Below are positions 16,668 to 47,411 of a stretch of DNA of 64,000 bases, piece by piece. Within the stretch, counting starts at the first letter, position 1; the number at the start of each line of letters is the position of its first letter. The stretch lies in the NCBI GenBank assembly GCA_008632985.1, contig QPGO01000067.1:62001-126000 (forward strand). The letters are read 5' to 3'. The stretch is from Psammoneis japonica. Its lineage: Eukaryota. A program made the translations under genes and the position numbers. The notes below the pieces were generated by a model that was given only the letters and a program-made list of their open reading frames with translations, did not search any database and was not told where the DNA came from.

Positions 16668-19009
16668 TGTGATATCGTAATGTCTTTAACAACTGCTTCT
16701 ATACACCAACAACTAAAAGGTAAGGTCACGAATGCAATAGAGTGCCCGATCGCCGATCGGCTGCAGAAATTAATGACTGTGTCTGTCTCGCCAAAATCTT
16801 GCCCCAAAATGTCAGAAAAAAAATGTGACGGGGGGGGGCTGCTGTCAGGCAGTTCAGGAGAGACAGAGGGAGCTGCTCGTCAACAACGGGCCTGCGATGC
16901 AGCAGAGCCAGCTTCAGTGGACAAATGGGTTCAGATTGGTTTGCAATTGAGTCCCAAGCAATGCAAGAAGTGGAGCAAGCAAAAGAGAAAACTGCCAATC
17001 TGTGCTCTTGTGTTTTGTGTTTGAACATGATCAGTGGCCAGCCTCCTGTGTGCAAACAAAAAGTGCAAGTGAGCCAATTTTGCAAACCTCGCCCATGCCA
17101 GGATGGGGCACAATGAGGCAGTCATTCAGCTCAATCTTTGTTGTGCTTTTTCCCAATGCAGTCAACAAAAGTCCCTGTGTTGGAAAGTCAGCCATCATCA
17201 TGCCCCTTTCAGAGAGCTGAAGCAGCACCCACCACCCACACTTTGCCTTTTGGCTTCAACAGCTGAGATGCTTCTCTTGCCAAAGTTGCACCCGCAGATG
17301 ATGGAACAGGGTTGTCAGCACAACACTGCTGTTCACAGCACCACAACAAGGGGGTGGGGGCATGCTCTCTCTTGCATGATGAGCAACAGAATCGCCAGCT
17401 GCTGCTGTTCAAAATTCTTCTGCATCGCAACACAGTGCTGCTCTTCTTCTTCAACACCTTGTGCAATGATGCCAACAACCTCACAAGAATTTGTTGTCTC
17501 ATCCTCACCACAAAGCACTGTTGCAATCATTGCACACAATTCTTGAGGAGCAGTGCTGTGCATTTGTCCTTGCAAACGGCGCAACTTCAAAACAAGTTCT
17601 TTGAGCTGGCGGTGCTGGCGGGCAGTGGCATCATTGGTGGCCCAAAGAAGACTGTCTGACAATGGGAGCTTGCAAATTGTTGTTGCTGCAGACACAGCAG
17701 AGTTGCAAAAAAAGTGTGTGTCAACTGGGGGTCAAGAGATGTGCAGAGGCAGCTCGTTGTTGCAGCTCCTCATGATCATGGGGTTGGCCCAGCAATTTGG
17801 CAGCAAACTCATTTTTGTCCAAAGAGCACCATCAAGGCAGCAATGCAACCCAGTGCTGTGCTGACATTGCACCATGCTCCAATTGGTGCCCATTCTCTAT
17901 TTGGCATCACTTGGGAGATGTCAGAGCTTTTGCCTGCCAGAAGAGAACAGCAAGTGGGAGTCATGAGTTTTGCATGATGTTTTTGGTTTGGAGAGACAGT
18001 TTGGCAATGATGCAGCTTCCACTCACGTTTGTGCAATGTTGTGGCACAGTGTTCTCTTCAGGCTCAACTTGTGTGCCAATTTGTTTGTCAAGGGTGGTGA
18101 AAGCATCAGCTTTCTACATTGTTCTGAAAGCCACCTGCTTTCATCATGCCACGCTTCCAACCTCATGCCTTTTCTTGTGGCTTTTGTTTGTTTCATTGCT
18201 CACAGTGCTTGGCTCTGCTGTTGCCTTTCCGCAATTCTGTCATTCCACAGGATGCTTAGATGGCTTTCTGTGTTTTGTGTGTTGCATGTTGTGTGGCAGC
18301 AATGATGTGTTTTTGGCGCAATGCAAAGCCAGTCAGCCTGGTGATCATTCTCTGCATCATTTTGTGACTTGTCATTTTTCATGTCTTTTTCTTTGTCATG
18401 TGCATTTTTGAAGGTTTGTGTTGTTTAAATCAAATCAAGTGAGTGACAGGCAGGACTGGCCTTGGTTGACCAACAATTTCATTCAAGCAACGTTCTTTGT
18501 TTGCAAGCAGGATGTTCAACATTGAACCAATCTAGAGCGCACGTGTTGTGCAAGATTGATGTTTTCATTCTCTGTGATCTCAGTCAGCTCTTGTTGAGAA
18601 TGCAATTTTCACTTTGCACTGATCCAAACAGCTTGTCCATGTGTCAGTGTCTGTCAGACTCTGCTGTTGCAGCTGGTTTTTGCACAGCTGATCCAGATTC
18701 ACACAACAACCTTTGTTGCAGCTGTGCTCACATCATGGTTGAAACTTGTGTGCAGGACAAGGTCAGAAGGGGGCATGGAGTTGGTTGTGCAGGAAGTGTT
18801 GGACCCCTGCAAAAAGAGCTCATTGAATTGCTCAAGCAACAACTTGGCTTGTCCACTGCACTCATGGCAGCCCTGCCTGCCAGCACAGCAGCATCCAGGG
18901 ACAGCACCTCCCATCATGTTGTCACTGCCAGCAACAACATGCTTCAAACTCTCAGCTTTGTGATGCTGCAAATGATGACACCCACAGTGCCCAAGAACAG
19001 CAAAGCTGA

Positions 19010-19970
19010 AAGGTTGATCTCATGGCATTGTGCCCCTGGTCACATTGCCCCCCAACAGCAGCAGACTTGACTTCCCCAACTCTGAGCTGCGCAGATCCCA
19101 TCATGGTGCCAACCAACCTGACAACTGCCAGCACAGGGCATTGGTGGTTTTTGGTGGACCCCAGGCAAGACTTCAAGAGTTGTTCTTGGGCATTGTTGCA
19201 AGGTTGGTCTTGTTGTGCTGTGGCCATGTGTCACCTTGTGCTCAACAACAGCAGACTTGAACTTCCAAGTTCAAAAGCAAAAGGATCCCACAATGGCGCC
19301 AACTGACCTGACAACTGCAAGCTGAGGAAATTGGCGGTCTTTGGCAGACCCCATGCAACAGTTTGAGAGCTGTGGCTGGGCGATGTGAGGTTGATGTTGT
19401 GGTGGAGTTTCCCCATTTCCCTTTGACCCCAACAGCAGCAGACTTGAGCTTCCAAGCTCCAAAGTGCAGGGATCCCATGGTGGTGCCAACCAACCCAGCA
19501 ACTGCTGCAGAGGGCACTGGCGGTGGCTGGGAGACCCCAGGCAGCACTTTGAAAACTGTGGTTGGGCATTGCAAGGTTGATGTTGTTGTGGTGCCCCATG
19601 TCAGCTTGTGCCCAACAGGAGCAGACTTGAACTTGCAAACTTCTCAATTGGAGGATCCCATGATGGTGCCAACTGACCTGACAGCTGCAAACTGAGGGCA
19701 CTGGCAGTGTCTGATTCACACCTGGTTTGACTTTGAGAGCTGTTGTTGGGCATTGCAAGGTTGATCTTGTGCTGTTGTGGCCCCACATCACCTTGTTCCC
19801 AACAGGAGCAGACTTGAGCTTCCAGACTCCAGTGCAAAAGGATCCCTCCAATGGCACCAACCAACCTGCCCCAACTTCCAGCAGAGGGCACTGGTGCAGT
19901 GTCTGTTGGATCCAGGAGGGCAAGATTTGTCAAAAAGTGTGCTTGGGCATTGCAAGGCTGATCTTGTGGC
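19010..19970. repeat. Degenerate tandem repeat, about 5 units of 182-190 bp
   Basis: The anchor aacagcagcagacttga (with variants) recurs at about 19054, 19244, 19431, 19613 and 19801. Confidence 0.88.
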
Positions 19971-22900
19971 AAGGATTGAATGATCCTGTCTTTGAATCCA
20001 TGTCTGTGGCAGCTCCTTGGTTCTTTCTGCGTCCATTTAAGCAGAGTTGGAGTTGGTGTGTTTCCTGTGACTGCTGACGAAAAAGACTCAGATTCAGACA
20101 TGGAAGCCAAGGAAGGAAGATTTTGCAAGATGCACAAGGTGAGCTTGAAGAATGTGGTTGCTTGTGTGGTGGCTTGAGTCTGCCGCCACCTCCTGACCCT
20201 GCACTGTGCTGAACAAGGAACAACTGAAGGTGTGTGCCCACAACTGCCACTTTTCACATTGTCACAATGCAGATCTCACAAGGTTGCACCACATCCTGAT
20301 TCTGTGAATGTGTGTTTTTCACTTGGATTTGCTGTTTTAGAACATTTGCACCAATGCTGCCACAGGGATTGCCCGGGGGGGGGGGGGGCTGAAAAGCCTT
20401 GGCTGCATCATTGGTTTTTTGTGAGTGGGGAAAGCCAAGGCTTGTGCATCATGCTGGTGCTGGATGCAATGAGGGCATTCCATGGCACAAGCGATTGTTG
20501 CAAAATCCTGGATGGCAAAAAAGGGCTCCCTGTGCATGATGAGTTTGTTGCCAAGTTGCACAAGGAATGAGGAGAATGGCACAAAAAGTGAAACAAATGT
20601 GGAGGATCAGGCAAAATGATTTGTGAGCAATGTGGTTGAGAACAGTTTGGTTGGCACATTTGCAGCACCTGATTTAAGCAAGAGAGTCAGCAAGGACAAG
20701 AAAGGATTGAGTCAAAGTTGTCCTTTTAAGATGTGCTGCACAAGTGGCAAGCGCCCTTCTTGCATCATCATCCTGGGCTTGTGCTGCCTCAAGATCACTG
20801 GCATCTCACTCATCCTGAATGTGCAACAGCCAGAGCAGAGCCAAGAAAAGGTGTGACAACACCTGGGGTCACATGACCCAGTTGTTAAAAAAGTCCATTG
20901 TTTGGGACCAGCACTGTTGGCTGGAAACCTCAACTCAGGCAGCACTGAAAACAATTGCAACAAAGAAGTGGCAGTCTTGTTTCTGGTTTTTTGTCATTTT
21001 TTGCAAAGTGGTGGATTCACTCATCAATGCAGACAGAGCACAATTGTGAACCTGCTTGAGTGCAGTTGTTTTGTCACCCTCCATTCTGTGTCCCCAACTC
21101 AACAGCTCACCTTGACAACTTCCAATGTCCATGTGAGCGTTTTGCCATCTTGCTCCTTTTGCTGTCTTTCAGCTCAACACATGGCACCTCATCTTTGGTT
21201 CACACCACACATTGTTCCATCAGCAGCTTTTCCACTTTGCATGAGGTTGTCATTGCCACCCAAAACTTTTCAGATGAGTTTGCCTTGGTCCAATTGCATT
21301 TCCAGGCTCCAGTGCAACACACTCCAAGAGCTGTGCAGGCTGGAGAGCAGAGTTTGCACAACAGCTCTGACTTCAACAATGTCTGACCCCTAGTCCAATC
21401 AGAACATGCAAAATGATGGCCTGTTGAAAGCCACAGCAACAGCAATGCCACACTCTTTGGTCAATCTTCACATTGTTGCGTTGCTGATTTCTCTGAGCAA
21501 CAGCCTGCTCTGGTTGTTCTTTTGCCATGCCAATGACTCCCATGACAAAATGTGCAATCAACAGGTTGCTGAACATTGTTTGCAGCCAATCATTTCCAAC
21601 AATGCCAAGCACACAATGTTGTTCAAGAGACACAAAAGGCACTGTTGGATGGCAAGCAACATTGGGGTAAAGAGGTGTTTGGTGCAAACAAATGATTCTC
21701 ATGGACTTCAGGAGGAACAACAGCCAATTTTCAAGTCAATTTCTGCCATTCTTTCCTGTTGTTGGTTGTGTGTGCATGCTGGAATCACCTTTTGCACTGC
21801 AGATCAATGGTGCATGCAACTGCAATTGCCCCTGCATGTCTCTGGATGGGTGGCTTGGCCAATGAGAAATGATGACACCAAGAGGTGGCAAAAGTGGTGC
21901 AATTGTGTTGCAAACAAAAAAGCATTTTTTGCATTTGTTTTCACTCTTTCCTGGAACACCAGTGTCAGGCAGTTGTGCAGCAGAAACACCCTGAAATGCA
22001 GGCAATGGGCAATCAAATGAAAGACCTTCCAACCAACTGAACAAACTCTCAACAAGATCCAAAAGTTTTCAAAATGAAACACTGCACATTCAATGCCATT
22101 GCAGCCATCACCTGTGAACATCAATCTCATTGTAAAAAAAATGCCAGATGTGCAATTGGAACAGCCAACCACAGTGAAACAGTTCATGAATCAAATGGCA
22201 GAACAAGCACAACAGTTGACATTTGTAAAAATTGTGTGTTGGTGGAAATTGCAGTCACAAATGTGAAAACTGCAGTCTTTGTCCATTGCTCTTCTTGTCA
22301 AGTGCAGAAACATGTTGCAGACAATTGAGCAGAAGCTCACAAGCAAACAAGAATCACAGGTGCATGCTGTCATGCTTGGAAACATGGCACACTCATCAGC
22401 ACAAGACATGGAGTTTGACAAGGATGGCAGTGGTGCCCTTTCAGCCACAGCTTTCTCCAAATTTTCTGTGGCACATGTCACCACACAGGCAAGTCCCACA
22501 CAGTTTGTCTTTGAACTTGATGCAGCTTTGCATGTTGCCCATTGCACTGAGTGGAAGCACATCCAAGACAGAAAGCAGAAGTGGGTGTGCTTGAATGACA
22601 AGCGCAAGAACACAGAATGGAAAGAGCAGCAACCAATGGCAGGCAGCTGGCATTTGCCAAACAAGAGCAGTTGTGCAGGTTCTGCCAGAGTTGTCTGTGC
22701 CTGTGTGCTGACAACATGCACAATGTGCAGCAGATTGTGCCCTGTCACCAGCAAGCACTGTGCTGGCAATGTGGCAAGACCACGCAGATCCCAAACACAG
22801 GCATCATGCTGCAGCAGTGTCAGCACATGCCATGGAAGCACAGAGAGGGTTCCCTGGAGGCTGGCAACTCAGGCATTTTAGAAGTGAGCATCCGCACATG

Positions 22901-23882
22901 ATGTGTGTTTGCACTGACAGTTGACAGGCTGCCAGTGTAAAGGAAGAACAGCACATGGGGGCTGCACACCTGTGTGCATGTGATGTGCACAAGCGGGGTT
23001 GGAGAAACTCAGATGCAGCTGACTGGGTGTGTCCCAAGCTGTGAGCCAACATGAGAATTTGTGCAATTCCCACTCACTCAACTCCACTTTGCAAAAACAA
23101 AAAACCAATCTCACAATTTCCACAGCAAAACTTTCAACAACCTGCCATCTCTGTGAAGTGACAGTGCATGAGGCACCAAGCCTTCAAGCTCAACTTCTTC
23201 AACACCATGTTGGAGCTGTGTGAAAAATTTCCTGCAGCACCAGTGCAGGGAATCTCCTTCTCTGCCACATTTTCTGACAAAGCACAGTGATCAAAAGAGG
23301 CTGAGTGCAGCCTCAACAGCAAACAAGAAAGCACAAAATTGAGCCACACATCAACAAGTGCCAAAGATTTTGCTGGAAAGCCACTCTAAAGCAGAAATGA
23401 GTTCTGTTGCTCTGTGTGACAGCAGCTCTAAATGCCTCATTGGTGTGAAAGAAAACAGGTTGACCAGTCTGTGCTGAGCATGACAAGGCAATCCCATGAG
23501 CTGTGAGGTGACAGAAATGAACAAACAAGGCATGGCTCATGACCTTGCACCAAGCAAAATCACCAACTTAACAGCAGCGCTGGGCACTGAACCAAGAGAA
23601 ACTTTATGCTGTGTGCTGCTGCAAGCACAAGACAATTTGAGGTGGCACTGCCACAGAGGTGATTTCAGTCACTTTGCATTTTCGCAGCAGGAGTCATTCA
23701 AAAATGTTGCGCCAGTCACAGCTGGTGTGTTTTGCATGAAGAAAAACCCAAAATCGTGTGGAGGTGCACACTCCTTGTGTCATGCAAGAGAGTGATTGGA
23801 GCCAATGACTTTTTGGGAACTCAATTGAAATGCCATCTGATCAATGGCTGGCCTTCACTGTGTAAATCAAGATCAGACAGCA

Positions 23883-24010
23883 TGTTTCAATTGATTTCCC
23901 GAGAAGTTGACATTCACACACAGACAGATGGACAAACTGACAGCGACAATTTTTGGCACTCTCCCACACAAATTCTACGTGATGACTCTGAGGACCCGAA
24001 TCATTCCTGT
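23883..24010 (+). repeat. Mutated copy of the short dispersed element at 30860-30987
   Basis: tttcccgagaag..cattcacacacagacagatggac..ttctacgtgatgactctgaggacccgaatcattcct aligns with 30860-30987. Confidence 0.85.
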
Positions 24011-27000
24011 TGAAAACACATCTGCATCACCTTGGTGCAGAAAAGGACACAAACAACATCAGGCTTGAGCAGAAACAGAGAATTTTTGTCTGTCAGCAGA
24101 TCAACAATGTGCTGCACACAAGCCAGAGCATTGAGCTGAAGAGCCCGCACTCCAGCCAAGCATGTCACACCCAACAGCAGCAAAAATCCAGAGCCTCCAC
24201 AATGTTGAATTTGAAATGATGTGAGTGGCTGTGACATTTGTGAAACATGAAAAACAGCAATGCAGAGACATTGGGCATCAGCTGAAGAAGTGCTGTTTGT
24301 CCAACAGTGGGGTGCAGACAGAGACAAGCTGTTGATGCCAACTTTCTCCACAAGGTGTGCTTGCAAAGCATTTTTGTGGCAAATCTGCATGTTGCCATTG
24401 CACAGATCTGGGCCAAGTCTTTCATTCTCAAATCATGGAAGCACTGGTGTTTCTCATGGTTGGCTTGCTGTGCAGCTGCACAAAGGTGCACTTCTTCAAT
24501 GAGCAGAGACTGCAAAAGGAGGCTCAGATGAGGTCGCAAGTGTCCTGCACCTTTGTTGCAGAAACCACACAAACTCAGATGTGCTGCACATCTTGGCTGT
24601 CATTTGCTGTGATGGTTGTGCCAGACAAAGTTGGAACAACTGACTGGCACTGTTCTTTGAAACAATTGTGGACCCACACTCTGCTCCTTTTCCCAAATGA
24701 AATTGCCCGCTGGTTGACAAGACAGTGTGAACTCACTTTGCTTTTGTTTTGTTGCTGTGTGAGGCATTGGGCAGCACCTGCAAATTGGCACTCAAGAGAT
24801 TGATCTCTCTGTTCTTGTGGCAACATGTCCTCTGGCCACACACGCACCACTGAGCCAGACACACAGGGTGCAAGAGTTCAGAGGACTGCCCAAAAGATGC
24901 TGATCAGCATCTTTTGGGAAATCAATTTCCTGGGATGGCAGGTTTGTTCATGCCATGTCCAAAAGCCCTGATCTGGCCCTGGACAATGGTGTGTTGTGGG
25001 CTGGGATCACAAATGGGAGCTCTGACCACTGCCATGCATCTTCTTCCACACCAGCAAAAGCAGGGGGCAACAAGTCAAAACCTTTCAGAGTCCTGATCCC
25101 CCAAGCACTGTTTCTGTGCCCCCCACTCAGTGAGTGACTTGTGAGTGACTTTTTTCAACTGCCATTGCTTGAACTTTGGGTGTGGCAAGGACAGATTTGC
25201 ACCAAGAGACAGTTTTCTCAATGGTCGCCAGATGAAGCGCTGGCGCACCACACTGATCTTCCAAATGCTGCTGTGCACAGAAACAAGCAATGTGAGTGGA
25301 AATGGCAGAATTTTCAGAACAAAAGTGCAGTGCTCCCACACCTTGGTCATGCCGATCTGTGTGGCTTGGGCAAGAGAATGCCAAGGGCCAATGGAAGCAT
25401 TGACCAAAGGCACCCAGATCTCAAAACAAGGCCTGATGATGCTCATCTGAGGAAGATGAAAGTGAGGTGCTTTTCATCATGTTTGGAGTGTGATGTGGGA
25501 AAATGAGTGAATGTCTCCAGGGATTGCTGTGGTTTGATGGAAAAGAATGGAAAAGAAGAGCTCTGCCTGCAAGACAAAGGCAAAAAGGAAGGAAAAAGAA
25601 TGGGGTGAGCTGCTCAGCACCATGTTGCCACCTGAGAAAGAGGAAATTTTGGCTGTGGCTGTGCCAGAAGCCAAGGGATCTAAAGCTGCCAGCATTTTTT
25701 TCCAGAGGGACAGATTGTGGGCAAGCAGGTGACAATGAGAGTGCACAGTCAATGGAGCACTCTTCTTTGGAGTTGACAACACTTGGGGGAAGAGGCAGGG
25801 GGGGGGAATGATCAAGCCAAGGCTCTGCAGAAGGAATTCATCAAAAATGCAAAGGAGAAGAGTGCAGCTCTGCCAGAAAGAAAGTGTGCAAAAAGTGAGA
25901 GTTTGTGTGTGAGCAATGGTTTGACACATTCAATGACATGAATGATGTGCAGGGATGACATGGCAAAAGAGTGGGAGAGCAGGTTGATCAGCTGAAATGT
26001 CCATGCAAACCAGCAACTTTAATGTGACAATGTGTGTTTGTCTTTTGCTCACCTTCATCATTGGCAAAGTCACATGAATTGTTGCAGCACACTTCTGGCT
26101 CCTGCTGAGAAACAACTTTCAAGTCGACTGTTTGAGCAAGGTGACAGCATGAGCATGCATCCAATGCACTCTCCTCCATTGTTTTCCATGATGCTTTTTT
26201 AACATCAGCCAAATGCCCTCAGCTTCTACATGGATTTCTGCACAACTTCTCACACTGATGTCACCCTTCTCAGATGGTGTTGTGTTGGCTCCAACAAGCC
26301 CATTTTGTCCACAGTTGCCAGCAGCACAACTTCATTGCAGCATGAAGAGCAATGTTCTTCAGCGGAAAATGACGGGTGTCAAAGCCTCATGCTTTGCATG
26401 CTGGCTGCCATTCATTGTAATTTTCTGTCATCTTAGAAAATTTTCTGCAGCACACAGGCTCCAGTGCAAATTCTGCATGGCTCTGCTGAAACCACTGATG
26501 ATCTGCATGACACATCTCTGCAGTCAACTTTGGTCCCTGCCAGTTGGTCTTCAATGCCACTTCCTTTCTCTGCCATTTGGTCAAGTCTTTTGCTCTTGGG
26601 GTGAAAGCACTTCCTCTGTTGTGGCTCTTTCCAGCACAAACAAGAGCGGCACCCTTTGGCATCAGTTGGTTGTCATCTGCTTGCTTCACCCACCAGCATT
26701 TCTGCACAATGTCTGGCATTGTTTCTGTGTGTGACAAACATTTTTTCTGATGACCCACCCATCTCACCTTCAAAGCTCCCAGCTCCATGCATCCAAGTTT
26801 TTTGCACAATCTTTCCTTTGCATGAGTGCAGTTCTCTTTGGTGCATGAATGAGTGGCCTTGCAGCCCAGGTCAGTGTTGGCTTTGGAAGCACATTCCAAG
26901 GTGCTCAGTGTTTTTTTTTTGAAGACCACCAGTCATCTGAGCATGGCTGTCCTGCGCATCTGTGGTGCACCTTTTGTTGCTGTCACCAAAAGTGTGCAAC

Positions 27001-27529
27001 AAAGTCCTTGTGCAAATTGTTTCCATTCAACTGTTCAGTGGGGTGTCACTGACAGGTGATGCCCACACTGGCCAATTGGCAGCACTTCTGCCACACTGTG
27101 CAGTGTGCTGGAAGCATGGGTTGGCCAGCACCGGCACAGCCAACAATGGAGCAGCAGCACTCCAAGTGCAGATCTGCTTTTTGCATCTTCTTCAATGGCA
27201 CTGGTGGTTGACAATGCAAAACACAAATGAAGGAGCGAGAAGGCTCAAGAGAACATCACCAAAAACAAGGTGGCACACTCAAAAACTCGGCGTTGATGTG
27301 CTGCTTGTGGCTCACAGTGGCTCTCAAGCAAAAAGCAACAACAGCGGGGGGGGGGGGGGACAGCAGTCAAAAAGCAGGGGTGAGTGTCATGGTGAAGTGA
27401 TGGTTGAGAGCAAGATGTGACCATGCAAAATCTTGTGTGGAATCTTGCGAAAATTGATTGTTGAGAATCAGACCTCATGGCGCCAACTGGAATCTTGTGA
27501 AAATGGAACTCTTGTGAAAAATCTGTCAC

Positions 27530-29790
27530 ATGAATCTGAAGTCAAAATGGCGATCATTGTCAACAAGAAGTCAATCAACAGTCCCAACCATCAACCATGT
27601 GTTGCATGTCAATGGCTTGCACATCACTGAATTGAACAATTCAAGAAGAATTGACTTCTTCATTGCTTTTTTTGGTCAAAAGAGCACAACAACAACATCG
27701 AGCAAGAGTGTTTTGGCAGCATTTTCGACTCCAGAATGGCACCCAAAGCACAGAAAGACTCTCACAAGTGACACAAACTGTGCTCTGTCAAACAAGGCTG
27801 GAACATTCATCACAATGTCTTGATTGATGTTGCTTCTTGCACAAAAGCCACCATTGTCATTCACAATTTCGAAGTTGGTGTGAAAATCACTTTGTGTTCA
27901 AAATTCGTGATTGCACATTTTCATTGATGAGATGTTAGAATGTTCAGTGCACAAATGAACCATGTGTGAGCAGTTTTTTTGAGGCATGTGCACAACAAGT
28001 GCAAAGCAGCACAATGTTGGACAGACAACAGTCGTGCATTTGTTGCGATTTGTGCGACAAATTGCTGTCAATGCCGCCGCCGCCGACGACATTTTTCTCA
28101 TGCCCTCACAGGATGACTTTGCAATGAGCACTTGTCACAATGATTGACTGCACTGTTTGCAACATGAGTGTGTGAAGAAAGTCCCCCTGACAAAGTCTCA
28201 ATCATTCAACAATGAATGCATGACAGTGACAGGCAGGAAAACAAAGCTTGGCATTGACAAAATGTTTTGCTTTTGAGTGGAGGTTGCTCTTGGGGACTTT
28301 CATGACTGAGCACATTCTCAAACTTAATGACCCAAATGTCTGTGATGACAAAAGACTCTGGGACATGTTGCTGTCATTGCTGTTGTTGCAACAACGCACC
28401 ACCATCATGTTGCCAATTTTTGGCGATGATGCACACAGCGCGCACAAAGTTTCCAGCACAAAAAAGTTCAGAAAGTCCAGTCATCTTGCCATCCATCAGC
28501 TCATTGTGCAAATGCCTTTAAAGTCAGTGACAGCCATGCTGAAGAATTGAACTTTGATTCTTAAAAGAAAACAGGATGGCGGAACTTGTGAATCGTCCGT
28601 TGAGTGTGCACATTGAGCTTGAATTTTGCACTCAACAGAAATCCAATTCTCAAGAATCAGCACCCGGATTCTTGAGGAGGGTCATCCCCACGTTTGTCCT
28701 GGAATTGCTGTGGCATTTGAATGAGGATGTTTGCAGTGTTCATTTTTTAATGCAAAAATTGTTCACATTCACCCCCGATCGTGCACCAAAACAAGAACAT
28801 CTGGCACCGCGATTGAGGCACGACAATGACGGCAATGTTGACACAGCTCAAAAACACAGTGGTCCATCCTCAATCATTTGATGCATGTGTGACCTTTGAC
28901 ACATCACAGCAAACATAAAATGAGTGAGAGTTGACAGATGGACCACCTCCGTCAAAGACTTGTGGCTTGATGTGTGTTTTCGCCATGGTGGGGCATGGTG
29001 AAAATCAGGAAAAACCATGCAAATCATGAGCTGTTTGGTCAAATTCGAGCTGAAAAAAGCAGCAAATGACCCCCCCCCCCCCCCCTTGAGAATCGGTTTT
29101 CACAAGTTTGTTTGCAGCAGATCTTCTTTGTCAAAGCTTTCTCGCTGTCATTGACACACGCGTTGGCTCATGTGAAAGATCTTTTTCTCCACTTGCTGGC
29201 CATTTGATTTTTGCAAAAACTTCTTGGCACAGGCCCATTGTGCACCCAAAACCCCAAATTGCACACATTTTTTTGGCAATTTGTGCAGTGCGTGCAATTC
29301 CACGTGTCTCTGGTGCTGGATGATGGCAAGACGTGCGACAATCCAATTGAAGGAGAGTTCAACCGCCCTGCGTTCATCGTGAATTTCAAAGAGGAGCTGA
29401 AGGTGCACAAGGAGAAGATTGATGAAACAGATGATGACCATCATGGCACGCATGCATTGAAAATGCAGGAAGGCAGCTGGAGAGGAGCACGATCTGAGCA
29501 ACCTTGAAGAACACACGGGCCGACTGGCTTGGAAAAGAAGATGTTGCAGAGGTTGCAAGGAGGAGGGTTTGGGAATGGCGGCATGTTCACCATGAGATGC
29601 ATTTGTCCATGTCTGAAGCTGCACATCTGGCCAGTGGTCCTCGTGCAACTTTCCAGCACTTCAGCTGAGCAAGCTTTTTCTCGGCTCAAGCACATTGTTG
29701 AGACAGCTCAGCGCAGCACGCTGCATGATGCCATTTTGTTGCATCTTTTTTCTTGTTTGCACTGGGGACATGATGTCAATCAAGACTGTT
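27530..29790 (+). mobile_element. hAT-superfamily transposase remnant
   Basis: C-terminal dimerisation motif VLVQLSSTSAEQAFSRLKHI (compare SSASxERxFS), preceded by FKEELK and an ARR..VWEW-like segment. Many stops and frameshifts. The 5' limit is approximate. Confidence 0.7.
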
Positions 29791-30344: not shown

Positions 30345-30346
30345 TG

Positions 30347-30844: not shown

Positions 30845-30859
30845 TAGGGCCCTAGCTAG

Positions 30860-36380: not shown

Positions 36381-39300
36381 TGTTTGTTGCTGCAGTGCAA
36401 GAGATCATTGCCTTCTGGTGGTGCCAACATGGACAGGGCTTGTCATCACAAGCTTGTCATCCTTCAAAACAAGCTTGCCATTTTTCAAACCAAGCCTGGC
36501 TGCACTTCTTTTTTGTTTTTGCATCTTTCAAGTGACAGAGAGCTGCATGATTTGTGGTGCATTGCCTGTCAGCAAAGCTCAGTGCCCCCACTTTCAAAAA
36601 CTTCATTTTCCACCCTGCTCAAAAAGCAGATGTCACAGCACAACACATTGTCATTGTGTCAAACACACCTGCAGGGGCAAACAACATCAGTCTCTTGTTT
36701 TGACATGATCTGCATTGTCTCACAGCCAAATGGGCTGCTGGTCATTGTTTCACAGCAAACATCTTTCCAGGGGGGTGTCAAGTGTGTTGTGAGGGTGCTG
36801 AAGAGCAAACCTCTCAAAGGTTGTTGTTGGTGAGAAAGACTCTGTTGCATCTCCCACCTGTGTTGCATCAATTCTGTGTCTGTTGCAATCATCAGCTTGA
36901 TGATGTTGCACCTGGAGCAGGCAAAAAAGCCCCAGCATGGTCCATGTGCAAGAACGGTGCAAAAGAAACAACTCCTGACCATGGTTGAGTTTCAGCTGAT
37001 TGTCGTTGGCAAACATGTGTCTGCACAACCACATCCCCACAGCTGCTGTTGGACCTCTAAATGTGCACAAATGATCATCAGCCAAACATGAGTGCCAGTG
37101 GCAACTTTCCCAGTTGTTTTCAAAAGCAGGTAGACAGGGCACTCTCTGACGCTTGTGAGCATCCTCCATGAGTGCTGGAGCCCCATGTGCTGAATGACAT
37201 GGTTGATTGCTTGCAACACATCTCACACATGTTGCCCACAAAACCCTGGACCAACCAGACTCTGTCAGTTAATCTGCACCATGCAGTGCACAGGCCAGCT
37301 CAACAAAGGCACTTGACAAACTTTGACAGCTCTTTCAGATGCACAGCACAAACAAGTTGTCACATGCAACAACTGATGGTTGTCAACAGTTTGGAGAGTT
37401 TGTTTTTGGCATGCAAGCACAAACCCACATGGGGCTCCATGTCATGAGCCACTCTGTGCAGCACCCCCAGCACACAGAGATCCAGATGAACATCCACCAA
37501 CCCTGTGGGTGGAGACATGAGAAACAATGATGGCACATCATGAATCAGCAGGCTGTGGTTTGAAGCTGCTTCTAACTTTTTAAGTTGTTCCTTTGCACAG
37601 CACTCAACAATGTCTCACAAGCATGACATGTGCATCGTCAGATGTGCACTCCAGCTCCAGCCCTGAGGCTGGGTGTCACCTTGGGTGCACAGCTGGAATT
37701 TCATGTGCAAAACTCTGTGTGCAGCAAGGTTGTTTGGCAATGAACAAGTGAGTGATTGCCAGCAGTTTGCACAAACTTCTGCACACTTAAAGTGTTGCTT
37801 CATCTTCAGCAGTGCACTGGCAGTGTGAGGCGCCACCAAGAGCTGGTTTTGGTTGGTCTGCAGGTGCAATTTCTCTTTTGTCAAGTGCAGGAACAACTGC
37901 AAACTTGTGGTGATTTTTCAGTGCCTTTGGAACTTCAATTGAAAAGTTTCCTGCACCCTCTTCTTGGGCCATTTTGATCACCCTGCTCTAAAATCATTCA
38001 ATGCAAAGAGGTCGCCACCAAATCCTCCATGTCCAAATCAGTGTGTGTTGTCATTTCTGTGTCACACAGATCTGTTTTACAGTTGCTTGTGTGTGAACTT
38101 TCCACGGTGCATCAAAGACCTGCAATGATCTCCCATGAATGAAACAGGTCTGTTTTGGAAAGAAATGCCTCGTTGTTCACCATTTTTTACAGCACATGTC
38201 AAACATCCACTGCTTGCATTGTTGATTGATGCTGCTTCTGCAATTTTGCAAAGTTGAAAGAAGTCATCAAAACAACAACCATGCAACACCATTCCCCACA
38301 TGGAACATCACAGCATCATCAAAAAGATTAAAATGTTTTCTGCCATTTTGGTGTGGAATGTGGAGCAGAACACTCAGTCATGAAGCTCAGATTCCAAAGT
38401 TGATCTTTTGGCAGCACGCAGATCTGCAGAGAGCAAAAGGGGCCTCAAAGAGCTTGCAAGTTGGAGCAACTTGGGTCAGACTTCAGAGCAAGCAAACTGC
38501 TCCTGTTGCCTCATTTGGCACAAGGTGCATTTTTTGTTTCACAACACATGGTGCCAATCTGTGCCATGTGGGGCACAGGGGTCATGCCAGCATTTTGAGC
38601 ATCTGCACACTCAGCTGAGTGGTTGTTCAGAAATGTTGCACATGCATGAGTGCTGAGAGAGAGCTGCACTCAGTCAGAGAGAGAGAGAGCATTTGATTTG
38701 AACTTGCTGTTTGACAATGGGGGCATCTTGTTCTTTTGTGCATGGCAAAGTTGTTTTGCAAACCAAGAAGAGCAACACAGCTGCCAGGCAGAGGCATGTG
38801 GGCAGCCTTTCAGCGCAGCAAGTGTCTGGGTGGGCAGTGCAAGGCAACAAGAGCAACAGTCAAGACAAATCACATTCTCAGCAGACTCCTTGATTGGAGC
38901 ACAAGGCAAACTTTGTGCTTGGATTGGTGCCCTCACTCTGTGTCATGTGTGCACCTCTCATCTCCAGAGCTAGACATGAAGGGCTTGCCTGAGCCTTGCA
39001 CTCAGTGGCCCCATTTGGCACCCATCTGTGATGTGTGCAACACTTGCACCCCATCATGAGATTTGCATCTGTTGTGGACTTCAAACAAGAATGCCCTGGC
39101 TGCTGCCCCTCTTTGTCAATGTTGAGTGGCACACTTGTGCTCTGGCCAGCAGTGGTGCTGGGGCAGCTCTTCACACGATGGACACAAAAGAAATGTTGCA
39201 CCAGCTCCTCCATCTGATGCAAGTCATGACCTGACAAGCCTGTGGGTTGGGTGGCATTGCTGGGTGCAAGGGAAAGCAACATGTGGATGAATTTCTGAAC

Positions 39301-39490
39301 GCAGCACTTTTGTTGTTTGTGCATTCATTGGTGCATGGCAGTTGCTCTCAGCACTCAGCAAACCACCATCAAATCTTTTGAATTCAAGTCAAAAGTGTGC
39401 AGAATGATGCCAAAATGCTCACATGCACACTCCACACAAAAATGTGCTTCATGCCAAAAATGAAACTCCTGCCCAGAAGCTCTCAAAATC

Positions 39491-39668
39491 AGAGCTCATC
39501 CAAGCTCCTGACATCAGCAATGCTCACCATGGAAAACTGTCAACTGTTGACATGTGAATTGCCAGTCACCAACAGCTTCCTTTTTCCTTGCCACTTTTTC
39601 AGTTCACCACAGGAGAGCAACTCGTGTGATCTAAACAATCACTCACTTTTCACACTTCTCCACTTTTG
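39491..39668 (+). repeat. 5' LTR-like direct repeat
   Basis: gagctcatccaagct..acatcagcaatgctcacc..ttccttgccac..ggagagca..atcactcacttttcacac..ccactttt matches 44351-44518. It is followed by tggtgc, a possible primer-binding site. Confidence 0.7.
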
Positions 39669-41708
39669 GGTGGTGCTTTGACAGTCATTTGAACACATCA
39701 CATCAACCACAACCAATCCCCCACCAAGCAAATGCTTGAAATCATAATCTGTGGATGAGTCCCTTGCTTGCAAATCCTGTGTCCAAACATTCACCCTGAA
39801 GAAGCATGTGTCACACGCCCATGGTTGCACCACCTTCACATCCTGCCCAGCCATCACCACTGACATGAGAAATGTTGAACGCTGCCTCACATTTCACATG
39901 ACAAAAATGCTTTGGCCAGTGCATCCAGAGATGTCCCCTGCTGACCATCTCAACATCATGGACAATTTGACCAATTCTGCCAGCACCATTGACATCCAAA
40001 CCAACAAGCACAAGACTGTTGACAAAAGGTCCCTCAAGAAACCAGCAAATCTCCAGGTGCCATCTCATCATGATGCTGGAGGCAACATCATCCCAAACTG
40101 TCTCTTGACAGTGCAGGCATCACCAAGCCCATCCAGGATGGCCCAACAGCAGACCGCCACCATGATGACATCATGTGTGCACCACGACCATCATCAACCT
40201 TGGCTCTTTGCATGGCAACAGGAATCTTGCCATTGCATTCTTCATCTGCTGACTGCCCATGAACAACACTCAACCACTCAACACAGCCAGAAACCCTGCA
40301 AATGTGTGCACTTTCAGCAGTCCTGGCAATTGCATGACCCCACCACCAGAGCAGGATCATCAAGACCTTGCTCACCAACCCAAATGAAGCCACACCATCT
40401 GCTGAACTTGTTGGTGCCATTGTCAACTCCCTCATCATCAGCACCAGCTGCAAACACACTCTACAGTCTGCAGGATGGTCTCTTGTCCATTGCTCCTGCA
40501 TTCATTTCCTGTTCATTGACGACCCATTCAAGATGATCAATCACATGCATCAAGTCAATGACCCATCTGATGATGCCATTGTCAAGTCCACCATCCAGGA
40601 ACACCATGACAACTGCAATTTTGACCTGCCAACCCTCACAAATCAGACACATGTGCAATGGCAGTGGAACCCACTGTGTCTCTTCATTGACAATCTTGAC
40701 TCTCAGATCTGCCAAAAGATCAGGGCAAAAAGACTCCACAGTCATGTGGAGACTGTGTCCCTCCTCTGCTCTGAACAAGCCAGACTCATCCAAGCTGCTT
40801 TCACAGCAACTGAGACAGCCAAGTTGAATCTCACCACTGATTGTCTGTTCATCCAAGGCAAGCTCCGCAAGACTCATGGCTTTGTGACTGTTGCTCAGCA
40901 GCCAACCATCCAACAACCTCTTGTCTCCAATGCACCCACTGTGGCCAAAGCAGCGGCCAAGGATCAAACTGTCATTGCACTCCCAGTGCTGCCAAGAGTG
41001 CCCCCAATCATCAGAAATTCATGGGCAAGTCAGGTTGCTGGGGGTGTGGAGCTGCAGAACCCCTCCACTGTGATTCCAAGACAAAAACAATTGTCTGTCC
41101 TTACACCAATGAGCCAGAGATTCACAAGAATGCTGTGTGTGCAAGGATTTCAACAAGTGCATGAAGAAGCACCATGGTGGCAATTGTCGCACACTCAAAA
41201 TCTTTCTCACACCAGCAACCTTCTCCTGTTGGCACTCCCATCTCCAAAGTCTAAATCCAGAGGCAATGACCAGCTCGCTGGTCTCATTGTCAACTCAAGC
41301 AAGCAATCCTTGGGCAGATCCAACAACAAACATGAGAGAGCAACTCCAAGTCAGTCATCACTCTTCACATGCACATCTGACAGTCCATGTCAAGAAACCT
41401 TCCTCAACTCCCCATCCTGGTGAACAACATGCTGCATCATGTCGTGCTTCAACTTGGCCTTCCCAATGGTGCATTCAACCCATGTGCTGTTGTTGATGGT
41501 GCTGCTGCTCTCATGTGCAGCAACAGCAATTGTGGGGTGCCCACATTGCAAAGGTGCACCCCCTGAGCCAGCCAAGACAGCACTTGTCATGTCAAGGGTT
41601 GTTGCTCACTCATCACACTGATGACAAAATTGCGGTCAACATGTGTCTTTTCATTTCCTTGATTCTGTCTGCCCTGCAACACCAAAAGTCTCTGAAAATC
41701 AATGTGGG

Positions 41709-41907
41709 AAAGAGCATTTCCATGAACCCGTAGAAAAATGCCGATTTCGAATTTTTTAGCTCGAAAAACAGCCGACAACACTGATGAAGCGAAAGCGAAA
41801 GCTCACATCATCGAGCTTTGTATGTCAGGCAACTCTCAATAGATTGCTGTTATGCTGAAGGCTGTTGGTGCATTAGACAACCCCGAAAAAAGAGCATTTC
41901 CATGAAC
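41709..41907. repeat. Insert of about 160 bp retaining CG and TA, flanked by a 19-bp direct repeat
   Basis: aaagagcatttccatgaac at 41709-41727 and at 41889-41907. Confidence 0.85.
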
Positions 41908-44350
41908 TGCACTGTCGCCATGAGCTTCATCTCAACAGCCAAGTTGGTCATGGACTTTTTGAAGATGACACAGTTGATTTTAAACTGCATGATTGTGATC
42001 TCCATTTCCCATGGAATTCCACAGCCTGGCTTGCTCAGCTTTGAAGCTGCTCCCTTGCAATGAGTGGGCATCATCCAGCTCAAATCTTGTCACAGATGGG
42101 AGAGATTGACAAGTTTGTCAAGAACTGCTCCTGTGACACAGAACCTGGCACTGGTGCTTTCACCTCACAGATCTCCCCAAAAGTCTGTTTTGATCTTGGT
42201 CCATCCATGACCACCATTTCTGGTCAGCACCGTGCACCACACATCTCAGCATCATGCATGATGTCAAAGTCACTTGCAAGTGATGATTTCACATCACATC
42301 ATGTCACACATCTTGACATTGCTCAAACACACTGTTGACATCCTGAACACACCTCCATTGCAGGGTCAAATGATCAACATTCCTGAAGCACCACATCATG
42401 CCAAGAAGCCCAACCTGTTTGAAAGACAGAATGTGCCAGACACTGAAGACAACTTTTGTCTCCTCCTTCATGAGGCTTGAGTTGGCAAAGTCATCAGAAA
42501 GAAGACTCATCTGAATGCACGGACCTGGACATTGACCCCAACTTCACTTCTTGAACCTTCAATCCAGCCCAAGACACCAAAGAGCTGAAAAAAAATCTAC
42601 AACTTGATGAGGATTTGTGCCAGAGGATGTCAAGTCTTGTGTCATTGAGCTCATCAAAAAGCATCATTGTTGCTGCTGCTGCAAAGAAAACATCAAAATC
42701 CCCATCCAGGACTGTGAATGCATTGTCAACACAGGTGCAGCAAAACCAACAGCAGCCAAGAACATCCAATGCAGCCTTCACAAAACCTCTGTCATGAATG
42801 AAGCAATTGATGCCCTGCTGGAGAATGGACACATCATCCCCAACACATCAAGGGGGTGGCTGTCAAGGATCATTCTTGCCCCCAAGCCACACCAGGAAGA
42901 CATCACAGACATCAATGAATTTGTCTGGCAATTCTGTCTTGGTTGTGTCAACCTCAACCAAATGACAAAGGCAGCCTCACATTGAACTCCTTGCTGTGAT
43001 GATGCCACAGAGCACAGTGTTTCAGCTCCACCTCACATTTGTTCCTGCTCAACTTCTTCAATGGATGCCTTCAATGGATGCCATCAAATCAAGATGGGGG
43101 CACTGTCAGCTGCTAAAACTGCATTTGCTGCCCCCCCAAAGGCCAAAAGTGTCAGCACACCATCATGCCTTTCAGAGTTGTGAACAGGCCCACCACACGT
43201 GTTGCAACGGCACACAACGTGAAGGACAGCTGGGACAATGAAGCCAAAGTCATGGGTGTCACACTCAATGACAGTGATGGCTGGTCCTTCACATTGCCTG
43301 CCATCACAACTTGTCTTGAAACTTGAAAAAAATGCCTTTTCTTCCCAAAATCAGTCAAGTTTGTGGATCATGTTCTCACCACTTTGGGCCATTCCAAGAG
43401 TGGATTGCTCAGATGTTGGAAGCAACCTGGAAACATGTGAGACATCTCCAGCTTCATCTGCTTCTTTGGCAGCTTGTGTCAACAGCACATTCCATCATGC
43501 TTTGCGGACCAAGCAAGCACCAATCTATGAGTCAGTCAAGAACCATGACTTCAGCTGCAAGATCAAGGACTCCAAACAGACCGATGCCCTCAACAGTGAG
43601 TTTGAAGATCATTTTAAATCCACCATCTTGTCAAAACCATTGCTCTGTTGAGTTGATCACAACAAGAGACCATGCCTGCATGCTGACTTCTTGGGATGAG
43701 AGATGGCCCATGCACTCCTCCAGCCCAGAGATGATGAAGCATCCTTGGCAGGCCTCAAACCTCACATCAGAGAAGGAGTGCCCTTTGCTGGGTGATTTGT
43801 GAAAACTCTCATGTGGTCCATGGACAGCCACTTGCCAATGTTGGAGACTGCTGCAGACTGATGTGGTGGATCATGTGTTGTGAAGGCTGCCATCCTGCCA
43901 TTGCCAACCACCTGCAAATGAAGCTGGTGTCATTGTGGTTCACTGTTGTCCACCAACCCAACTGCACACTCATCAATGCCGTCCACTTCTCACAATGATG
44001 TGGCCAAGAAATCAACTTGGACCCCATGCTTGCTGGGCACATCTTGACAGCACAAGAGCAACTGGCATCAGACATCTGCTGCTGGCAGCCACACAGGAAC
44101 AGAAGTCAAAGCCAAGAACATGCCTCATTTTTGTTGCAATGCAAAAGCAATCAAACAAGCTGACACCATTGCTGTCCAATCTGGTCCAAGTGAATTGGAA
44201 GAACCGTCATGCTGGAGAACACCCCAGCATCATTTGGCACATCTGGCAAACCAACAGCCCCACCCAGACACTCCGGTGCCTGACTTTTGCCTGGATGTTT
44301 TCAAAAGCTCTTTGGCTTTTGCCATCTTAGTTGATGGGTGGCTTGAAAGT

Positions 44351-44518
44351 GGAGCTCATCCAAGCTAACATCAGCAATGCTCACCTTCAGAAAACCCACA
44401 GCCGCTGGCACATGAGTCACCAGCCCTTTTCCTCTTTCCTTGCCACCTTTTCAGCTCATCGTGGGAGAGCAGCTCACAACCCAGATGATCACTCACTTTT
44501 CACACCACTCCACTTTTA
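44351..44518 (+). repeat. 3' LTR-like direct repeat
   Basis: Matches 39491-39668 and the split copy at 47330-47405 plus 48403-48497. Confidence 0.7.
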
Positions 44519-44805
44519 AGAGCTGTCTGTTCACACTTTCATTTCTGCACATTTTTCTGCTGACAACTTTTTTGTCATTGTGTTGTGCAGCTGCAGCATT
44601 TTTTTCACCACCCATGCGCTGCCATGGGTGGGGATGCTGCAGAAATCATGCAGGTGCCATTTTTAAAAGAAAAACCAACCTTGTTGCCCAAATGGACCAT
44701 GGCGGTCATCAAAGCCGTGACAAAAAAAAGTGTCCTCATGATTCACAAGTCTCAACGTGCAGTCACAATGCACAGGCAACAACCAAATCAACCTGCCATT
44801 TCTCA

Positions 44806-45090
44806 CCAAATTGCTTTTGCACCCTCAGAATCACTGTGTCAGACAGCCCCTTCAAAGCATCACATCTGCCATCATCTGGTTGGGTGGAGTGCACCAAGGG
44901 GCTGTCTTGAACAATGATTTGGTTGAAAATTAAGCAACATCAACACCTGACCAACACACATGATGTTTCATGCCAAATCGCTTTTGCACCCTCAGGATTG
45001 TCATCAAGAGTTGCACTTTTGATGCCACTGTGTCCGCCATCATCACATCAGGTGGGGTGCACCAAAGTGCAACTTTTGGAAGCAATTTCA
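44806..45090. repeat. Two tandem hairpin-forming units
   Basis: Shared ccaaatygcttttgcaccctcag leader and shared loop. Stems are agacagcccctt/aaggggctgtct and agttgcacttt/aaagtgcaact. Confidence 0.7.
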
Positions 45091-45384
45091 TCAAGCAATT
45101 TTGAAATGTCTGCAAATGACCTCACATCTTGTCTGAACATCATGCCGCCATCCAAATGGCACTTTCACAAAGAATTCTTTTGTTTGCCAGAAGTGGAGAC
45201 TGCTGGGAGTTTGTCTGTCAGCAAACAACTTGCCATCATGATGAAAGCTGCGAGGAAAACTTTTTTGCACTCTGAGACTCTGAGACTTTGAGAGTGATTG
45301 ATTCAATCAATTCCATGTTCACAACAAGCAACAAGTGTTCAAAAATGCTGTGTTTTTGGCCTCATCAAGAGGAAGAGTGCCACT

Positions 45385-45740
45385 CTGAGCCACATTGTGG
45401 AGAGGAATGGGTGGCTGCACATGGTTGCTGGTTGCTGTGGATCCACTCTGCCCTGCATCAAGGCCATTTGGGAAATGCCAGAGCAGCACAAGCCAAGAAA
45501 GCTGCCAGACATTGGCCTTCCCAAGATTTTGCTTTCTGGTCTCAAGGATTTGGTTGTGTGGATGACACTCAGCACAACCAATTGGCTTGCCATTTTTGAA
45601 CATGGGTGAGTGTTGCAACATTTCTTGATCAACTCACTTCAAAAAGCTCATGATGGCAGGTTTCTGTGAAGCAGTTGTGGACATGTCAAAGAAGCAAGTG
45701 GAGGATGGGGCGCACATGATTGACGTGGGTGTCAATTGGA
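45385..45740 (+). pseudogene. METH: Cobalamin-dependent methionine synthase fragment (end of Hcy domain and start of pterin domain)
   Basis: NGWLHMVAGCCGST..IKAI..KPRKLP..LLSGL, then FLNMGECCNIS..FKKLMMAG..KKQVEDGAHMIDV. Confidence 0.85.
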
Positions 45741-46519
45741 AAGTGGGAACTCCTGCTTCTGATGCTGCTGTCAACCCAAATGATGCAAAGATGGTTCCAA
45801 CTTGTGTCATGCAAAGTCACATGTGCACGACACTGCCAGATTGGTTGGTGTTTTGTCCATGTTTGTGTGTGTTTTGCAACAATTGTTGCACGCAGCACAA
45901 CACTTGCACAACAAGAACATGGTGCATGGTTTTCCTCTTGACAGAAAACATTTGTTTGAGAGTTGGAATCATGTTGTTTTGTTGGATGTTTCGTGTTTCA
46001 TCCTGCAAACACAACGTGACTGCCTTGCCTGATGATGACCCATCCATGTGTTTGTGTCATTGACAAGAACAAATGGAGGAGTGTTGTCAGTTGGTGCAGG
46101 AACATTTCCATCTGCTGCTGCGGCAAAGCCAATGCACACACCTGATGCAATTGACACCGGCCGGTGACATTTTTGGTGTTGGTTGTTGCATGATGGAACT
46201 CTTTTTGAATGGCGAGCGTGTCACAGAATTGGGAGATTTGATGGAACATCATCAACAGGGCACCTCGACAACTTCACTTCAATCCAATCTGCACAAGAAT
46301 GAATCGTCTTCAACCCAAGCCACCTGTCAACACATGTTGCATTTTTTAAATCCCAAACAGCGACTGTCAGCAAAAAAGCATTTGCAGTGACTCAAACAAC
46401 AACTGCAGGGGAGTGGCAGTGGAAGAGATGGGGCAGCAGGAAAACTGCTTCAACCTTGGATGCATCACAGTCATCATCATTGTCCACTGTTGCTGCCAAC
46501 GTTGAGGCCGTGTGCATGA

Positions 46520-46692
46520 GAACTGAATTGCCACATGGTGCAAAGCTGGCTCGTGAGGCTTGTGTGATGAGGTGATGGCCAAGGATCCCACCAAGCCCGG
46601 TTTTGTCATGTGTGCTCTTGGACCAACAAACAGCACAGGTTCAATTTCTCTTTCAGCAAAAGAGCCGTCTGCCAGAAATGTGACCTTTGACA
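46520..46692 (+). pseudogene. METH: Methionine synthase fragment (middle of Hcy-binding domain)
   Basis: GAKLAREAC / DEVMAKDPTKPGFVMCALGPTNSTGSIS..PSARNVTFD. Confidence 0.85.
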
Positions 46693-47411
46693 AAAGTGAT
46701 GTCGATTTGCCCAGTTGGACCTTGATGACGATGATGGACGAGCCGGGCTCCTGCTGGCATTGCCCAAGGGATGACAGGGAATTTATGTGGATCAGGAAGG
46801 ATGCCAAAGGTGGACATCATGCTTGATGATGTGACCTTGGTTTTGCCATGAAAACGGCATGTGGATTGTTTTGCACTCAGTTGATTTTTACACGGTGAAG
46901 TGTGCGGCAAAAGCGAGAAAAGTGCCGTTTCTTGTTCTCTTCAAGTGCACAGTCAAGTGACTTGGTGGAAACATTGTCAGAGACATGAGAGCTGTCACTT
47001 TTGATGTCGGTCACCATTGGCATTGTAAAAGCCACAATGACACTCCAAAACTGCAAACGAGTCAATGCACGAAAAAGTCAAATGTTTTCAGTCGTGATTG
47101 CACGGCAAAGTGCGGGAAAATGGCAGCCACTTCATCGCTCTCGATCTTGACAAATGCAAGGCCAATGAAGAAGTTATGCCCCGTTCCAAGCACCTCTGAG
47201 CACCCTCTGTCGAATGAGGTGAGTCTCGTTTTTACAGTGATCAGAGGGTCTGTGGTGTTTGCGATCCAAGAAAATTCGTTTCTACGTGATTTCTACGGGC
47301 GTCCCACCCATAGCCCGCTGTTTGGATGTTGCCCAAGCTGACGTCAGCAACGCTCAGCTCCAGAAAACCGTTACATCGGCACATGAATCGCCAATCGAAT
47401 CGCCATGCACA

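Follow-up and report, generated by a model that had tools for sequence, protein, structure and literature searches.

A 64,000-nucleotide stretch of the genome of the diatom Psammoneis japonica (contig QPGO01000067.1, positions 62,001 to 126,000; hereafter the window) contains two blocks from which the dinucleotide TpA has been almost entirely erased, and the few TAs left in these blocks are strongly biased toward sites with a T two bases upstream or an A two bases downstream (TNTA or TANA; below, either-context). From the sequence, we consider it probable that these TAs are the sites changed most slowly by a domain-targeted, TpA-specific A:T>G:C mutator, namely an adenine deaminase working site by site in silenced domains. 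The ratio of observed to expected TpA is at most 0.19 in all 500-base bins of 17001-30000 and 34001-47000 and ranges from 0.21 to 1.10 in bins outside the blocks; inside them CpG is also low and CA/TG is high. The first-pass annotation of this DNA had placed the bias across 16900-47030. Two erased blocks do fill most of that span, but an unaffected island lies between them, and we counted it as background rather than as block. The comparison therefore sets 26,292 bases of block against 37,092 bases outside.

Either-context was found at 69 of the 79 TAs in the blocks (29 with both T at -2 and A at +2, 40 with one and 10 with neither) but at only 681 of 1459 TAs outside (114 both, 567 one, 778 neither; odds ratio 7.9, p 2.4e-13). 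Thus the contexts of the remaining TAs do not match the background, and the bias that had been proposed from a manual scan is real; the five exceptions named in that scan are all among the 10 TAs with neither context. Each block contributes (31/34 in block 1 and 38/45 in block 2), and block composition was ruled out as the cause, since the other 15 dinucleotides within the blocks have an either-context share of only 0.33-0.50. A bias of the same strength is present at the adjoining bases. T stands at -1 of 0.54 of the block TAs compared to 0.21 outside, A at 0.06 compared to 0.26, and the motif YTAR (Y, pyrimidine; R, purine) accounts for 47 of the 79 block TAs and 257 of 1460 outside. The ±2 bias is seen both within YTAR sites (39/47 vs. 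140/257, p 2e-4) and at non-YTAR sites (30/32 vs. 542/1203, p 1e-8).

Comparisons between retrotransposon copies elsewhere in the genome indicate that the TNTA/TANA excess is a matter of slow mutation and not of re-creation. Seventeen copies were aligned to the least-changed natural copy of their own family, and 13 of these were used; the other four were dropped because the first yardstick of that family was itself mostly mutated. The 13 comparisons yielded 2621 observations at 521 TA sites, at which TA was kept 893 times and had become CA 888 times and TG 840 times. TA was kept in 24% of cases with neither context (384/1621), 46% with T at -2 (204/445), 51% with A at +2 (228/443) and 69% with both (77/112). 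A comparison of mutated and surviving sites in paired copies, which had been suggested as a check, thus supports the protection of TNTA/TANA sites, and a held-out family points in the same direction. Two sibling copies that are 94.8% alike differ at 450 sites, only 18 of them by transversion; 95 sites are TG in one and CA in the other, at 61 one copy retains TA where its sibling has TG or CA, and the two have 516 CpGs in common. In this pair the context is present at 21 of the 29 TAs kept in both copies compared to 33 of the 95 lost in both. The long terminal repeat (LTR) pairs of the two siblings also differ at TA sites, so change must have continued after insertion. Of the changes scored at TA, 3755 were transitions and 55, at 16 sites, were of transversion type, and TA>TG reached 24-38% per strand compared to 0.2-0.9% for other A contexts. 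Both strands were hit about equally, with no sense-strand term in two families.

A competing-risk model fitted on other contigs only and then applied to the window predicted an either-context share of 0.87 (observed, 0.87) and a both-context share of 0.32 (observed, 0.37), with an area under the curve (AUC) of 0.88, although it under-predicts T at -1 (0.40 vs. 0.54 observed). A gain-loss equilibrium model, in contrast, predicts an either-context share of 0.70. Among the 442 TAs of 15 further stretches, 317 had the context, with an AUC of 0.66-0.91. It is exceedingly improbable that the remaining TAs, in the main, arose anew by CA>TA change or slippage in T runs, or that they reflect errors of the assembly, and such origins cover a minority of sites: a few of the 23 window TAs for which a homologous column exists do face CG, TT or AG in all homologues, but gain by CA>TA is 0.35-0.6% against the per-strand loss given above, protection is seen directly between copies, a model of pure survival fits where the equilibrium model does not, and 7 of the 23 are TA in at least one homologue compared to 180 of 6840 homologue columns opposite window TG or CA (a rough contrast, per site against per column). 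Re-creation by C>T as the main cause was ruled out by the same low gain and by the copy comparisons. At 37989 the window reads TCTAAA, and 7 of the 8 homologues aligned there share its TA. Assembly and short reads agree as well: contigs from short-read run X1 span seven long block pieces, which include 38 block TAs, with few differences. Run X1 is possibly the same sample as the assembly, so that this agreement speaks against assembly error rather than as independent biology.

The flanking bases leave a fingerprint that was reproduced between families. Rates were read on the changed strand as TA>TG and expressed relative to A at the position in question, with intervals by site bootstrap. In the 13-copy set, the rate at +1 was 3.41 for C (2.74-4.18), 3.29 for T (2.69-4.17) and 1.29 for G, and at +2 it was 2.43 for C, 1.78 for G and 1.87 for T. 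Upstream, C, G and T gave 0.71, 0.61 and 0.55 at -1, where A raises the rate approximately 1.6-fold, and 0.66, 0.82 and 0.39 (0.30-0.48 for T) at -2. The held-out (third) family, comprising 18 of 19 aligned copies with spared tracts masked (4532 observations at 305 sites), gave 3.16, 4.05 and 1.47 for C, T and G at +1, 1.93, 1.67 and 1.98 for C, G and T at +2, and 0.45 for T at -2. The ±2 position is worth 111 log-likelihood units for survival and 22 for strand choice, and the +1 position 120 and 92, respectively. Since ±2 weighs on survival and little on strand, the symmetric context is a property of the site, while the +1 base picks the strand. The penalty for A at +2 is strongest behind a purine at +1 (interaction 0.43), which explains why TCTAAA, TGTAAA, CTTAAA and TTTAAA head the list of survivors. 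Two further statements of the first-pass annotation can be judged from these rates. Its description of the context as strand-symmetric holds beyond the triviality that TA is a palindrome, as T at -2 and A at +2 each slow change on both strands. Its proposal that the mutator or a repair step disfavors the context agrees with the slower mutation between copies but is incomplete, as the +1 base is equally strong and picks the strand; sequence alone would fit either the mutator or repair as the source. A predicted hairpin-loop position had a ratio of 1.0, and unpaired probability gave 1.18 with an interval that spans 1 (41-42 base folds). Local GC had little or no effect on TA change, and the count of nearby CpGs had an effect of at most 10% per standard deviation.

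Seven copies contain sharply bounded spared tracts of 0.3-1.6 kb, in which TA loss is 3.5% per base compared to 38% in hit zones and CpG decay is 1.2% compared to 6.3%. A further count of CpG C>T gave 2/594 in spared tracts and 137/5312 in hit zones. The spared tracts show no reduction in transversions or in non-CpG C>T and therefore look protected rather than replaced; for the same reason recent replacement is unsupported. Over kilobases the process is all-or-none, and its tracts match those of CpG decay. We also compared 362 one-kb windows, drawn from the window itself and 30 stretches around retrotransposon hits or beside the window and thus not a random sample. In 79 of these, TpA was <0.2 and CpG ≥0.7, whereas none of the 145 with TpA ≥0.4 had CpG <0.7. 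Because in this sample CpG is kept where TpA is gone and never the reverse, TpA loss precedes CpG decay, is far faster and is a separate process. In the family aligned to L154 (L152, L155, L156, L160, L161, L168 and L088), single copies are mosaic, with approximately 80% of TAs lost outside the spared tracts and <10% lost within them; such tracts are found repeatedly at two places along the element, and one tract end is common to two copies. In several copies (L094, L098, L081 and L083) the outer 270-330 bases escaped next to a flank of normal DNA, whereas most ends that adjoin other hit DNA are mutated, with the right end of L092 as an exception. Some copies (L082, L085, L091, L154 and L165) are lightly hit although siblings 91-95% identical to them are heavily hit; targeting therefore differs between copies.

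A weak leak was detected at adenines outside TpA. For this count, columns with TA, or with both TG and CA, in any copy were excluded, and sites changed in at most two copies were retained. Hit zones had non-TA A>G at 206 of their 25388 positions and spared tracts at 2 of 2942. Sorted by the base 5' of the A, the counts were 121/9347 for AA, 49/8762 for GA and, about level with GA, 36/7279 for CA, and the odds for a pyrimidine at +1 were 4.2 (AA), 7.4 (CA) and 3.4 (GA). The leak is at least 30-fold weaker than change at TpA, follows the same +1 pyrimidine rule and is limited to hit zones. Non-CpG C>T was not raised there.

In the mechanism that we favor, an adenine deaminase would convert the A of TpA to inosine in duplex or briefly opened DNA. 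Its targets would be silenced and probably, by inference, CG-methylated domains; diatom transposons are CG-methylated by DNMT5 (PMC9998398). Sites would be hit singly over many divisions, with replication fixing inosine as G. Poor substrates would be purine-stacked steps with A/T flanks, among them TTTAAA, TCTAAA and TGTAAA, and CpG loss would be a slower, separate decay. An adenine deaminase fits the near purity of the transitions, the narrow dinucleotide target, the leak under the same rule and the multiplicative neighbor effects. An ADAT2-like gene and a TadA-like gene are present in the genome, as are two loci with an editase domain (PF02137; G000:C40 and G000:C79), which speaks for presence and not for activity. 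The tested exon of the G000:C79 editase matches ADAR chains in PDB. As the deaminase, an ADAR-like editase is a tentative candidate, an enzyme of the ADAT2/TadA type would be rather unlikely, and a member of another deaminase family very unlikely. On a broader scale, we would only cautiously suggest that diatoms, perhaps with other SAR algae (Stramenopiles, Alveolata and Rhizaria), possess a dedicated DNA adenine deaminase, possibly a diatom-wide ADAR-like editase, that is guided to CG-methylated repeats and reads a duplex TpA hexamer. The second editase-domain gene, L077/L123 (G000:C79:344171-345887), a candidate for the enzyme, showed no dsRNA-binding domain in the three frames scanned, and at L071 (G000:C79:88500) a zinc deaminase domain and a 2-oxoglutarate Fe(II) oxygenase share one frame. 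A MafB19-deam search found no deaminase locus beyond those already detected, and a Tet_JBP search was uninformative, as it gave no match but its control was silent too.

Several points weigh against an adenine deaminase, or against parts of the rule by which it would act. No known deaminase fits both the 5' and the 3' side. ADAR, which acts on duplex RNA, has a 5' order of U>A>C>G, a 3' order of G>C~A>U and multiplicative neighbor effects that reach past the nearest base (PMC3113232). The 5' order seen here (T>>A>C~G) and the multiplicative effects match, but the substrate of ADAR is RNA and human ADAR1 prefers a 3' G with U least, whereas our 3' order is T~C>G>A, nearly the inverse (+1 G, 1.3-1.5; C or T, 3.2-4.1). 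The engineered TadA editor ABE8e-YA prefers YA, with YAY>YAR (PMC12528748), and so resembles the present process in A>G change on DNA and in its 3' pyrimidine preference; however, TadA editors accept a 5' C, and here CA lies below AA and level with GA. Amphioxus BjADAT2/3 likewise changes A to G in DNA, but BjADAT2 favors GAA sites and hairpin loops and can deaminate C too (PMC10354150), while here predicted loop position had no effect in the folds used and non-CpG C>T was not raised in hit zones. The ADAR-like G000:C79 gene has relatives across many diatoms and is not specific to this genome. In the held-out family, sites with both contexts were retained as often as sites with T at -2 only (0.37 each), sites with A at +2 only went to CA more often than to TG (292 vs. 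171), and an effect of T at -3 was not reproduced. The survival model over-predicts the bias in 5 of the 15 other stretches (0.56-0.65 observed vs. 0.75-0.89 predicted), and some window TAs, for example those at 44366, 38188 and 20886, look newly made from what stands opposite in every homologue; the neither-context exceptions at 44328 and 44366 are among such TAs. Across 19 copies TA loss and CpG loss are only weakly correlated (rho 0.33, p 0.17), which tells against any simple connection with methylation, and CpG decay is present even in two copies that are lightly hit (13/680). Finally, a lesion centered on A and one centered on T of the opposite strand would give the same sequence counts.

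Among other mechanisms we considered an error-prone polymerase similar to pol eta that would misinsert G across from a template T, behind a primer ending in T:A, in repair patches of silenced repeats, and that could also restore deaminated methyl-CpG while destroying TpA. We regard this as unlikely. The WA hotspots of pol eta in somatic hypermutation (WAT>WAV and TA>AA; PMC8749460) share with our data the 5' order of TA over AA over others and the raised rate before a 3' T, and TpA loss and CpG decay do occupy common tracts. Double changes at TATA also fall on one strand more often than in controls (0.75 vs. 0.50; 43/58 vs. 42% expected; held-out family, 125/187 or 0.67 vs. 0.52). However, this same-strand excess is clear only at a distance of 2: at 3-150 bases none was consistent, with a marginal excess at 5-10 bases in one set that was absent in the other, although patches with less than one change would hide it. 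Long same-strand runs were rejected, as 2 of 17 copies reached p<0.05 and none extended past approximately 10 bases relative to cross-copy controls. TA specificity is also sharper here, with TA above AA by approximately 30-fold (38% per base vs. 121/9347), a 3' C is as good as T, and the near-absence of an effect of nearby CpGs does not favor such patches. Pol eta makes many transversions, in contrast to the near-pure transitions counted above.

A lesion in thymine appears very unlikely. Here a methylation-linked enzyme would turn the T of TpA, with RTA preferred, into a base pairing with G. Like methyl-CpG, TpA is a YpR dyad in which each strand carries a 5-methyl pyrimidine, and an effect of ±2 on both strands resembles the read-out of a dyad; all counts can be read equally well from the T strand, the targeted tracts coincide with those of CpG decay, and C5-methyltransferase genes are numerous in the genome, one of them preceded by a chromodomain open reading frame. 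However, we know of no such enzyme, and the C5-methyltransferase class acts on cytosine. We hold it to be just as doubtful that the lesion is blind to its flanks and that repair, by inosine excision or mismatch repair, is more efficient at TNTA/TANA and YTAR. The two-strand effect of ±2 would fit a duplex property such as stacking or bending that repair senses, but the +1 pyrimidine rule recurs in the AA, CA and GA leak, as expected of one active site, and a TpA-specific mutator would still be required. RNA editing before reverse transcription was ruled out, since neither strand is favored, TA sites differ within LTR pairs and host duplicates are affected too.

The parent process has a precedent. 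In Bigelowiella natans, TpA-only A:T>G:C hypermutation of integrated nucleocytoplasmic large DNA virus (NCLDV) and virophage DNA has been described, with a de novo rate raised approximately 1000-fold in some lines only, and a deaminase has been proposed (Mettrop et al., bioRxiv 10.64898/2026.01.13.699255). Both systems change TpA to TpG or CpA on both strands by near-pure transitions in foreign or repeat domains; unlike B. natans, our case concerns a diatom, with LTR retrotransposons and adjoining host duplicates as targets and a near-complete erasure that shares tracts with CpG decay. Fungal repeat-induced point mutation (RIP) acts mostly at CpA and is triggered by homology between duplicates. 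It resembles the process described here as a dinucleotide-specific transition hypermutation that disables repeats, but RIP is C>T and makes TpA, whereas here TpA is destroyed and CA>TA is rare. With respect to a homology trigger, repeats are hit, yet a 1.9-kb gene duplicate of 83.5% identity is spared, near-intact copies exist and single copies are mosaic. Hypermutation of repeats from A:T to G:C runs opposite to the RIP and APOBEC defenses. The main text of the 2026 B. natans preprint gave no match for context, flank, trinucleotide, CpG or diatom; the quantitative flank rule is accordingly absent from that main text. A literature search limited to titles and abstract openings, with most subscription papers outside its coverage, found no paper on TpA erasure or a flank rule in diatoms. 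The replicated, strand-resolved rule lends itself to a direct enzyme test (TAY>TAR, a penalty for T at -2 or A at +2 on both strands, and a leak of AA>CA~GA), and set against the B. natans mutation list it could show whether diatom and chlorarachniophyte share one system. If the broader suggestion of a dedicated deaminase holds, the enzyme would amount to an adenine base editor of natural origin that defends the genome, and its specificity (T>>A on the 5' side, a pyrimidine on the 3' side, T at -2 and A at +2 disfavored) would be unlike that of any characterized deaminase; as such it would be of interest to the base-editing field.

The features of the window are collected in Table 1. The host setting is gene-dense eukaryotic DNA. 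Genes between the blocks are normal, the blocks are sharp and lie on repeats, and erasure also spreads into host duplicates. In the alignment of 33601-34855 with its outside copy, TAs of the latter appear as TG (22), CA (10) or TA (11), and the TAs that were kept lie mostly ahead of the block edge at approximately 33900.

Table 1. Coordinates of features within the window.
Feature	Position	Strand	Remarks
TpA-erased block 1	16900-30060		CpG also depleted, weaker from ~28000; 34 remaining TAs
TpA-erased block 2	33900-47030		CpG depletion fades past ~46000, TpA loss goes on; 45 remaining TAs
Unaffected island between blocks	30061-33899		TylF-family methyltransferase open reading frame inside, 32253-33605 (+)
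Decayed gypsy-type LTR retrotransposon	39492-44552	+	Reverse-transcriptase region ~42680-43515
Host-type duplicate of 50100-50990, extending into block 2	33948-34900	+	
Piece of the gypsy-type element's LTR family, unmutated and outside the blocks	48405-48496	+	Internal reference
Multi-copy repeat DNA in block 1	21000-22400		47 matches in genome, self match counted
Multi-copy repeat in block 2	37847-38200		
187-base tandem array in block 1	19000-19969		4.5 copies, 71% matches
Decayed host-like coding remnants	45629-46390	+	Pterin_bind E 0.0047, Pkinase E 0.0012; both below curated cut-offs

The gypsy-type element has an LTR-like pair at 39492-39698 and 44352-44552 (71% alike), and its relatives on other contigs have lost TpA but retain CpG. 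A Pfam scan of 56 of the 140 listed open frames gave five weak matches, all below cut-off, and a protein atlas search gave no usable match. A metagenome scan with a retrotransposon protein found 5 loci, none TpA-erased (TA observed/expected, 0.70-0.77), and thus offers no evidence on spread. TpA loss extends beyond CpG loss at the block edges 27500-30060 and 46000-47030. Between 19381 and 28811, 11 of 14 checked single-base differences between run X1 and the assembly are CG against TG or CA, which suggests, with alleles and paralogues not separated, that CpG decay is still segregating in the block.

Several copies of a C5-methyltransferase-like gene (L110-L112, L116 and L126-L128; G000:C297 and C301) are TpA-erased with CpG partly kept, and are either amplified host genes or repeat cargo. 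At L113-L114 (G000:C34) a C5-methyltransferase open reading frame has an upstream chromodomain frame (E 2e-5, slightly below cut-off), a layout reported for some RID-related diatom DNMT4s (PMC9998398). Both copies of the TylF-family gene duplicate (32423-34228 and 48525-50423, 83.5% alike) are untouched, and the downstream part of the first is erased once inside block 2. An apparent long inverted repeat was seen by eye at 47540-47910.

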